Below, piece after piece: positions 4,995 to 8,159 of a DNA stretch of 14,750 nucleotides (its first letter is position 1; every line of letters starts with the position of its first letter). Where the stretch lies: NCBI RefSeq assembly GCF_003334315.1, contig NZ_QOWR01000077.1; one strand, written 5' to 3'. A program made the position numbers and the translations under genes. Origin of the DNA: Escherichia coli. Its GTDB lineage: Bacteria > Pseudomonadota > Gammaproteobacteria > Enterobacterales > Enterobacteriaceae. The notes beneath the pieces were generated by a model. It did no database searches and was not told the origin of the DNA. It saw only the letters and a list, made by a program, of their open reading frames with translations.

Positions 4995-5023
4995 TAATGC
5001 ATCTTTCCAGGGCATTTTGTGCA

Positions 5024-5051
5024 TAAAAACAGGGCGTCACGCCCTGTTTTG
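5024..5051 (+). terminator. Rho-independent terminator downstream of mipA
   Basis: Stem CAGGGCG (5030-5036) / CGCCCTG (5040-5046) with loop TCA, followed by TTTT (5047-5050). An A-run precedes the stem, so it looks bidirectional. Confidence 0.7.
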
Positions 5052-5083
5052 CATTACGGTGGTGCAATACCTGGGAGGAAACA

Positions 5084-5938
5084 ATGCAACAAAAAATGAT
5101 TCAATTTAGTGGCGATGTCTCACTGCCAGCCATAGGGCAGGGAACATGGTATATGGGCGAAGATGCCAGTAAGTGTAAAACAGAAGTTGCTGCACTACGC
5201 GCGGGCATTGAGCTCGGTTTAACCCTCATTGATACCGCCGAAATGTATGCCGATGGTGGTGCCGAAAAGGTGGTTGGGGAAGCATTAACCGGTCTGCGTG
5301 ATAACGTCTTTCTCGTCTCTAAAGTCTATCCGTGGAATGCTGGCGGGCAAAAAGCGATAAATGCATGCGAAGCCAGTTTACGCCGTCTCAATACTGATTA
5401 TCTCGATCTCTACTTATTACACTGGTCTGGCAGTTTCGCTTTTGAAGAGACTGTCGCAGCGATGGAAAAATTGATCGCCCAGGGAAAAATCCGCCGCTGG
5501 GGCGTTTCGAACCTTGATTATGCTGATATGCAGGAACTCTGGCAGCTGCCGGGGGGAAATCAGTGTGCCACTAATCAGGTGCTTTACCATCTCGGTTCAC
5601 GAGGGATTGAGTACGATCTACTCCCCTGGTGCCAGCAACAGCAGATGCCGGTGATGGCTTACAGTCCGTTAGCCCAGGCCGGGCGGTTGCGCAATGGACT
5701 GTTAAAAAACGCGGTAGTCAACGAAATTGCACATGCTCACAATATCAGCGCGGCGCAAGTATTGTTGGCGTGGGTAATCAGCCATCAGGGTGTGATGGCG
5801 ATTCCAAAAGCGGCCACGATTGCCCATGTCCAACAGAATGCGGCTGTGCTTGAGGTCGAACTTTCGTCAGCGGAATTAGCCATGCTGGACAAAGCGTATC
5901 CGGCACCAAAAGGAAAAACTGCGCTGGATATGGTGTGA
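5084..5938 (+). CDS. yeaE: YeaE, aldo-keto reductase (NADPH-dependent methylglyoxal reductase family)
   Basis: 284-aa ORF, the length I recall for YeaE. Strong SD GGGAGGA 6-12 nt upstream of the ATG. Confidence 0.93.
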   Translation: MQQKMIQFSGDVSLPAIGQGTWYMGEDASKCKTEVAALRAGIELGLTLIDTAEMYADGGAEKVVGEALTGLRDNVFLVSKVYPWNAGGQKAINACEASLRRLNTDYLDLYLLHWSGSFAFEETVAAMEKLIAQGKIRRWGVSNLDYADMQELWQLPGGNQCATNQVLYHLGSRGIEYDLLPWCQQQQMPVMAYSPLAQAGRLRNGLLKNAVVNEIAHAHNISAAQVLLAWVISHQGVMAIPKAATIAHVQQNAAVLEVELSSAELAMLDKAYPAPKGKTALDMV

Positions 5939-5947
5939 TGTTGATAC

Positions 5948-5972
5948 GTGCCGGATGCATCGCACCCGGCAC
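5948..5972. terminator. Hairpin in the convergent yeaE / yeaD 3' intergenic region (weak terminator candidate)
   Basis: GTGCCGG (5948-5954) pairs with CCGGCAC (5966-5972) around an 11-nt loop. There is no clear U-tract on either strand, so this is a structural call only. Confidence 0.3.
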
Positions 5973-5988
5973 ACAACATTGACGCAAA

Positions 5989-6873
5989 TTAACGTTTGGC
6001 AACGCGAATGGATTGCGCCAGATGTGCAGGTTTTTCTTTGGTCACTTTTTGCATTTCTGAGGCGTAAGCTGTTTCTACACAAACAAAGGTCTTGTAGCCA
6101 TCGTCCGGCATGTCGCCCATGCTAACTGAAAGCGCCGGTCCCGGGTTCCAGCCTACAACGTTCAGATGATGCTGGTGGCCTACGGCGATAATACGATTCA
6201 GCGCTTCATCATTAATCACGCTGCAATCTTGCGGATTCAGATACACGCGATCGGTACGGTCAGGGAAGGTCTGAATACCGTCGGTCAGTACATCTTCTTT
6301 CGCGTCATTTACTTTATCAATGAAGCGATCGCCCAGCCCACTGACGCTTACCTTAGCGATATCACCCACGTTAAAGTAGGTATGCAGGGCAGAGGTGGTT
6401 TCAAATTCGCCGTGTGCTTCAAGATCGATTTCACAGGTTTTACCCACGCGGAAATGCGCTAACAGAGTAAAGTCGTGCGGCCAGAATTTTTTCGTCTCTT
6501 CGCTTTGTGTCAATTCAAAAGTCAGCGCTACGCCATTAGCATCTTCACGATGTGATTTCAGCGTCCACGGCAGGTTGCGGGCAAAACCGTGCGCAGGCAG
6601 GCCTTGTTGTGCCGCCGGACCAAACCACGGCCAGCAAACCGGTACGCCACCGCGAATAGCGATGCCATTTTTGAACGGTGTGTTGTTGCTCAACCACAGA
6701 ACTTCTTCTTCACCCGCAGGTTTCCACGAGAGAAGGTGTGCGCCCTGTAATGCAAAAGAGGCTTTTACCTGGGGATGATCGACCACAATGAGGTCCAGTT
6801 CATCCAGTTTACGACGGGAGAGGACAGGGGAGATTTGTTCGATGACCGGAAGGGCAAAAATTTTCTTAATCAT
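5989..6873 (-). CDS. yeaD: YeaD, putative D-hexose-6-phosphate mutarotase (glucose-6-phosphate 1-epimerase family)
   Basis: ORF track gives 301 aa from ATG 6894. I place the start at the internal ATG 6873 (MIKKIFALPV..., 294 aa), which matches YeaD as I recall it and has an AAAGGA SD 7 nt upstream. Confidence 0.88.
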   Translation of the reverse strand: MIKKIFALPVIEQISPVLSRRKLDELDLIVVDHPQVKASFALQGAHLLSWKPAGEEEVLWLSNNTPFKNGIAIRGGVPVCWPWFGPAAQQGLPAHGFARNLPWTLKSHREDANGVALTFELTQSEETKKFWPHDFTLLAHFRVGKTCEIDLEAHGEFETTSALHTYFNVGDIAKVSVSGLGDRFIDKVNDAKEDVLTDGIQTFPDRTDRVYLNPQDCSVINDEALNRIIAVGHQHHLNVVGWNPGPALSVSMGDMPDDGYKTFVCVETAYASEMQKVTKEKPAHLAQSIRVAKR

Positions 6874-6904
6874 GACGCAGTCCTTTAACTTCATTTTATC
6901 AGGT

Positions 6905-6935
6905 AAAAAAAAGAGCGACCGAAGTCGCTCTTTTT
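6905..6935 (-). terminator. Rho-independent terminator of gapA, looks bidirectional
   Basis: Minus-strand RNA reads AAAAAGAGCGAC-UUCG-GUCGCUCUUUUUUUU: an 8-bp GC-rich stem with a UUCG tetraloop and a long U-tract, 22 nt after the gapA stop. The plus strand carries the mirror A-run/T-run. Confidence 0.8.
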
Positions 6936-6956
6936 AGATCACAGTGTCATCTCAAC

Positions 6957-7964
<1,008 letters not shown>

Positions 7965-8159
7965 CTATTTGTTAGTGAATAAAAGGTTGCCTGTAAAATT
8001 ACAAAAACCTTACGCAGCGTCAAGCGGAATCGTGTCAATCATTGCGACAAATCAATCCTGTGCCTAAGCATTACGCGACTGACTCGCCTCACTCTTCCTT
8101 TGGGCTTGAAACCACATGGGGTCGGCGCCCCGAATTTTAAAGGGCAATTACGATAAAAA

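Follow-up and report, generated by a model that had tools for sequence, protein, structure and literature searches.

gapA and yeaD of Escherichia coli are likely to form a two-gene operon with a fixed, leaky terminator between the genes

The genes gapA and yeaD of E. coli are likely to form a two-gene operon that is divided by a fixed leaky terminator, so that gapA is represented by an abundant monocistronic mRNA and a small read-through fraction carries yeaD. The evidence comes from a window, i.e. the whole stretch of 14.75 kb of E. coli DNA that was analysed and to which all positions refer unless stated otherwise, together with published maps of transcript ends and a comparison of the locus among Enterobacteriaceae. 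In the proposed mechanism, transcription would begin at the gapA promoters upstream of position 7952, and most polymerases would release their RNA within the U8 tract of the gapA terminator, which would generate the abundant monocistronic gapA mRNA. A small fraction of the polymerases would pass the terminator and transcribe yeaD, which would then be translated from its own conserved Shine-Dalgarno sequence. The terminator would act as a fixed step-down, by which promoters and regulation could be common to a glycolytic gene of very high expression and to an accessory enzyme of low abundance, hexose-6-phosphate mutarotase. GapA exceeds YeaD by about two orders of magnitude in proteomes, and this would fit a read-through of a few percent.

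The region of about 2.2 kb around gapA-yeaD showed 100% identity to many E. coli chromosomes and was found in 5,426 of 5,426 complete genomes; gapA, yeaD and yeaE are the genes annotated in the matched chromosomes. Both gapA and yeaD are encoded on the minus strand and are separated by an intergenic region of 83 nt, the parts of which are compiled in Table 1. With respect to the yeaD start, tblastn matches begin at residue 1 in all loci. An earlier note on this DNA had located the terminator at 6905-6935, between the gapA stop and the yeaD ribosome-binding site, and these coordinates are correct. The distance of 26 nt that it gave from the terminator to yeaD has to be revised to 31 nt, the number of positions that separate the last U (6905) from the first base of the ATG (6873); the distance from the U-tract to the Shine-Dalgarno sequence is about 19 nt.

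Table 1 Features of the gapA-yeaD locus, with positions in the window and, for the comparison, loci with altered spacers.
Feature	Position	Strand	Details
gapA CDS	7952-6957	minus	331 aa, stop TAA at 6959-6957; RefSeq: glyceraldehyde-3-phosphate dehydrogenase
5' ends in mid-gapA assigned to a 'yeaD' unit	7486, 7480, 7463, 7448, 7352, 7340	minus	K-12 1861261, 1861267, 1861284, 1861299, 1861395, 1861407; Cho 2014 (PMC3923258) supplementary file 7, Kim 2012 (PMC3415461) supplementary file 2
Intergenic region		minus	GTTGAGATGACACTGTGATCT-AAAAAGAGCGAC-TTCG-GTCGCTCTTTTTTTT-ACCTGATAAAATGAAGTTAAAGGACTGCGTC-ATG
First 10 nt of the gapA 3'UTR	6956-6947	minus	GTTGAGATGA; near-invariant across genera
Intrinsic terminator of gapA	6935-6905	minus	AAAAAGAGCGAC-UUCG-GUCGCUCUUUUUUUU; fold, covariation, Term-seq
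Terminator, A5	6935-6931	minus	
Terminator, 5' arm	6930-6924	minus	GAGCGAC
Terminator, loop	6923-6920	minus	UUCG
Terminator, 3' arm	6919-6913	minus	GUCGCUC
Terminator, U8	6912-6905	minus	
Extended -10-like sequence	6901-6893	minus	TGaTAAAAT, right after the U-tract; putative weak promoter of yeaD, no 5' end mapped near it (Kim 2012, Cho 2014)
yeaD Shine-Dalgarno sequence	6885-6881	minus	AAGGA, 7 nt before the ATG
yeaD CDS	6873-5989	minus	294 aa, D-hexose-6-phosphate mutarotase; ATG at 6873-6871
Loci with the spacer insertion			L015 (2180-2500), L007, L014, L021, L023, L032, L033, L047; some with an extra internal insert
Loci with different spacer inserts			L042, L048, L054

The sequence behind gapA has the make-up of an intrinsic terminator, i.e. 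a GC-rich stem-loop that is followed at once by a U-tract. Its stem comprises a 7-bp core with five G:C pairs, which is extended to 12 bp by five A:U pairs, and carries a C(UUCG)G tetraloop. The full hairpin has a fold energy of -16.5 kcal/mol and the GC core one of -11.2 kcal/mol, and the fold of the gapA-yeaD intergenic region reached z = -2.7 compared to dinucleotide shuffles. A strict scan of both strands of the 14.75-kb window for hairpins with a T-tract (perfect stem with a minimum length of 6 bp and no fewer than 4 G/C, loop of 3-8, six or more T among the 8 letters that follow) returned just the gapA terminator and a site at 5046-5022, compared to a mean of 0.1 sites in shuffled windows; no other terminator-like site in the window is as strong as that of gapA. 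The earlier note had described the gapA terminator as strong, and the fold energy, the strict scan and the 3' ends found in its U-tract in vivo (see below) indicate that it is real. A promoter and terminator scan with a default program did not report the gapA hairpin. We regard this as a false negative, since the fold, the strict scan and Term-seq agree on the hairpin; it probably arose because the stem extension pairs the A-tract with five U's and thus uses up the T-tract.

The same hairpin (6905-6941) is nearly symmetric on the plus strand because of the A-tract, with T5 after the hairpin, and could also halt antisense transcription from the yeaE side before it reaches gapA; the genes flanking the terminator are co-directional. 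A second, small hairpin at 6956-6936, which is present in the single-sequence fold, was rejected, since it was unsupported by the alignment in RNAalifold. In Rfam, no family reached the gathering score anywhere in the window. The sub-threshold matches to STnc50, sraA and a plastid 3'UTR (E 0.1-0.5; about 25 bits compared to a gathering score of about 55) overlap the hairpin, and we dismissed them as terminator-driven chance matches.

Published Term-seq data place RNA 3' ends within the U-tract. Adams 2021 (PMC7815308, supplementary file 1) lists 3' ends at K-12 positions 1863815 ("primary, gapA") and 1863817, corresponding to window positions 6908 and 6906, and the printed 61-mers, against which the conversion of K-12 to window coordinates was checked, identify them as the fifth and the seventh U of the tract. 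The gapA 3' ends are listed in two of the three condition sheets (PMC7815308), which, judged by file order, are probably those for LB at OD 0.4 and M63 glucose. Neither gapA nor yeaD occurs in the Rho-termination table of the same study (PMC7815308, supplementary file 2), an absence that is weak evidence on Rho-independence. Apart from the terminator, Term-seq yielded 'orphan' 3' ends on the minus strand in the gapA 5' UTR at window positions 7981, 8014 and 8016 (K-12 1862742, 1862709 and 1862707; PMC7815308). They are located some 30-65 nt ahead of the gapA start codon and may represent premature termination or processing products.

Gene order and terminator are conserved together. A scan for YeaD with one genome per species gave 80 loci, all comparisons being confined to Enterobacteriaceae. 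In each of the 78 loci with enough upstream flank, gapA immediately precedes yeaD in the same orientation, and a hairpin is found 20-24 nt past the gapA stop in 78 of 78 loci with enough flank, which is what would be expected of an operon with a leaky terminator. The hairpin core GCGAC/GTCGC is invariant across the loci, and the base of the stem occurs as GAGCGAC/GTCGCTC, as GGGCGAC/GTCGCCC (with G·U intermediates) or as GGCGAC/GTCGCC. In an alignment of 47 sequences, 94.6% of the stem cells were paired, compared to 43-74% in slid-partner controls. Two stem pairs covary (GC:30/AU:15 and AU:23/GC:20/GU:4) and thus show compensatory change in the stem, although one of them may reflect a paired 1-bp deletion and not a substitution. 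RNAalifold predicted the terminator hairpin and no other structure on the alignment. Between U-tract and yeaD ATG, the 68 short-spacer loci have 18-43 nt (median 25.5), with just 18-22 nt in several genera, and the sequence of this spacer is not conserved; an AGGA-like ribosome site begins 11-13 nt before the yeaD ATG in 79 of 79 sequences.

Some loci deviate from this compact layout. The spacer between terminator and yeaD contains an insertion of 125-250 nt in Salmonella arizonae, several Citrobacter and Klebsiella oxytoca, with the gapA terminator intact upstream; the insertion resembles an ERIC/IRU repeat. Within E. coli, the intergenic match is split at the U-tract in about 10 of the 5,426 genomes. 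The single split genome that was inspected, NZ_AP027563.1 (L081:2559-3301), carries an IS200C element (tnpA) between the gapA terminator and yeaD, and strains of this kind offer a natural experiment on the dependence of yeaD on read-through from gapA.

Published expression data are in line with a common transcription unit. 'gapA-yeaD' has been tabulated as one operon together with the regulators of gapA, a listing that may be a database inference and not an experiment, and in RNA-seq both genes were down in response to fluoride (PMC10100675). Under anaerobic conditions, published RNA-seq data of Shigella show log2 changes of +1.83 for gapA and +2.45 for yeaD, and detection of the YeaD protein in the O157:H7 proteome demonstrates that yeaD is expressed. 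The design as such is common, as 264 operon-internal terminators with partial read-through have been mapped in E. coli (Conway 2014). Full-text literature searches returned no dedicated study that measured read-through at the gapA terminator or dealt with the yeaD promoter or the gapA 3' UTR, and they brought up neither direct evidence of a bicistronic gapA-yeaD RNA nor a value for the read-through fraction. The earlier note had proposed that yeaD relies on partial read-through from gapA, which is supported by the 3' ends in the U-tract, the lack of a mapped 5' end in the spacer in Kim 2012 and Cho 2014, the operon listing, the co-regulation, the gene order in 78 of 78 loci and the lack of a conserved promoter motif in the spacer. 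We infer that read-through transcripts exist, that most yeaD mRNA comes from them and that they make up a small fraction.

One observation that the earlier note had named as contradicting its proposal was a yeaD start mapped downstream of the terminator. We looked for such a 5' end between terminator and yeaD and found none in the tables of Kim 2012 (PMC3415461) or Cho 2014 (PMC3923258); both originate from one laboratory, and low-abundance starts could escape both. The supplements of SMRT-Cappable-seq, Cappable-seq and ROSE hold no entry for the gapA-yeaD locus. As far as these two tables from one laboratory go, yeaD lacks an independent start behind the terminator, as would be expected if it is served by a leaky operon.

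The claim of the earlier note that there is no room for a yeaD promoter went too far, given that a promoter may share sequence with a terminator and that the extended -10-like sequence TGaTAAAAT directly follows the U-tract (Table 1). On the sense strand of gapA and the intergenic region, just one other TG-extended -10-like site was found, TGgTATCCT (7027-7022) in the gapA 3' coding region. We rejected this site as a promoter, since there is no nearby 5' end in Kim 2012 or Cho 2014 and since its -11 A, a synonymous third position with 69% identity, varies. By means of TGaTAAAAT, yeaD could be transcribed from a weak sigma-70 promoter of its own, located in part within the terminator end, with the T-tract serving as AT-rich upstream DNA and with a start near 6886, so that the leader would measure 12-13 nt and open with the Shine-Dalgarno sequence. 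The motif matches five of six positions in addition to the TG extension and is nearly fixed in E. coli (5405 of 5426 genomes show at least 99% identity over the 100-nt region), and the analogous mipA-yeaE junction, where a low-count 5' end (3 reads) lies just past the terminator, indicates that such a layout is possible. We nevertheless consider a promoter of this kind improbable. Its -35 region is poor (2/6), and the motif is present without a mapped start, no 5' end near 6886 being listed in Kim 2012 (PMC3415461) or Cho 2014 (PMC3923258). Outside E. coli the motif is not maintained: it is missing from 66 of the 68 short-spacer loci, the two loci that carry it being E. coli, and the critical -11 A (second position) is G in other Escherichia, giving TGATGAAAT. 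The genera with 18-22 nt between U-tract and ATG likewise argue against it. TGaTAAAAT probably represents a lineage-specific single-base change with a minor effect.

All 5' ends that the two tables assign to yeaD are located inside gapA, upstream of the terminator, in addition to the starts of gapA itself at K-12 v2 positions 1860550, 1860621 and 1860641/2 (PMC3415461, PMC3923258). Promoters within gapA (5' ends between 7486 and 7340, the strongest at 7448) could give rise to yeaD-specific transcripts that account for most of the yeaD mRNA. Cho 2014 lists six such ends for a 'yeaD' unit, and the strongest one (K-12 1861299) is represented by 994 reads in Cho 2014 (PMC3923258) and, at the same position, by 583 reads in Kim 2012 (PMC3415461). 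These ends are, however, not preceded by good -10 and -35 elements (about 6/12 by eye; a sigma-70 motif scan remained empty), and they exceed the main gapA start in reads although the yeaD message is minor. Such counts would fit stable decay fragments of gapA that end at the terminator, and the gapA-internal 5' ends appear to belong for the most part to stable fragments of this very abundant mRNA. It is thus very unlikely that gapA-internal promoters supply most yeaD mRNA, and even if they did, their transcripts would still have to cross the terminator, which changes the promoter and leaves the mechanism as it is. For the same reason, a promoter in the gapA 3' coding region, which the earlier note had offered as an alternative to read-through, is not a true alternative, because any start upstream of 6935 must pass the terminator; moreover, the yeaD-assigned ends are found in mid-gapA and lack good motifs. 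Within gapA, genomic SELEX also revealed a weak peak of the sigma-28 holoenzyme (intensity 4.2) at about window position 7715 (K-12 1861032, coordinate version assumed; PMC5493296).

The gapA 3'UTR starts with a conserved 10-mer, GTTGAGATGA, which shows 93% mean identity among 71 distinct Enterobacteriaceae sequences and is as conserved as the third codon positions of gapA (89%). It contains an in-frame ATG, which together with a second in-frame stop (TGA, 6941-6939, minus strand) forms an ATG-N6-stop arrangement; a second in-frame stop at codon +6 was present in 46 of 56 distinct sequences (TGA 28, TAA 16, TAG 2). A conserved structure that would account for GTTGAGATGA was not found with RNAalifold, and the literature search brought up no report of a 3'UTR-derived small RNA from gapA. 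There is a slim chance that GTTGAGATGA with its ATG-N6-stop serves as a re-initiation mini-ORF, as a protein or sRNA site that tunes read-through, or as the seed of an sRNA of about 50 nt derived from the 3'UTR.

Least probable of all is that read-through is regulated and not fixed, with ribosomes at the first or second stop of gapA, or a factor on GTTGAGATGA, altering the hairpin and the yeaD:gapA ratio shifting with conditions: the conservation of the 10-mer and of the second stop, the listing of the gapA 3' end in just two of the three Term-seq condition sheets and the slightly stronger rise of yeaD than of gapA in anaerobic Shigella would fit, but these differences in expression are slight and were taken from separate experiments, 26 nt separate the gapA stop from the GC stem, which would put the stem out of ribosome reach judging from the footprint size, and we found neither an alternative or antiterminator fold (RNAalifold) nor a sensor domain or any other match (Rfam) of the kind that marks a regulated attenuator or riboswitch.

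An operon with a fixed leaky terminator has precedents at this locus and elsewhere. EcoCyc/RegulonDB-type resources list a gapA-yeaD operon at the same locus and without sequence difference, and its 3' end is already contained in the Term-seq catalogue of Adams 2021. The sdhCDAB-sucABCD genes, which belong to the class described by Conway 2014, are likewise co-directional and separated by an intrinsic terminator that lowers downstream transcription without abolishing it. They differ in that a secondary promoter has been documented for them and that the use of their terminator depends on conditions. The rplKAJL-rpoBC attenuator and the internal terminator of rpsU-dnaG-rpoD are classical cases in which genes downstream of a highly expressed gene are set to a lower level; for these, termination efficiencies have been measured and modulation is known, whereas we infer the fraction for gapA-yeaD. 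The window itself contains a second example of the design on the plus strand, mipA-terminator-yeaE (5022-5084), in which a hairpin with a T-tract follows mipA and the next gene is co-directional. Here, the Term-seq 3' end is located at about 5056 and the yeaE ATG follows 28 nt further on, at 5084 (PMC7815308). In contrast to gapA-yeaD, where no 5' end is listed past the terminator, a 5' end with 3 reads maps just past the mipA terminator, at about 5070 (PMC3415461).

At its other end, yeaD converges with yeaE. Published yeaE 3' ends at K-12 positions 1864735 and 1864740, i.e. at about window positions 5988 and 5983, extend as far as the yeaD stop codon or into it, and the yeaE and yeaD transcripts therefore overlap in antisense orientation. 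Between the two convergent gene ends lies a REP-like palindrome, GTGCCGG...CCGGCAC (5948-5972), and the stretch 5948-5988 differs from K-12 at a few bases, which shows that the window does not derive from K-12.

The gapA-yeaD locus and its design have already been catalogued and represent an ordinary operon arrangement, and the significance of the terminator goes little beyond annotation. As an example, gapA-yeaD is a clean and deeply conserved case of how an abundant and a minor enzyme share promoters at very different levels. Edits of the gapA promoter or terminator, or IS200-type insertions as seen in some strains, should be expected to alter yeaD expression.
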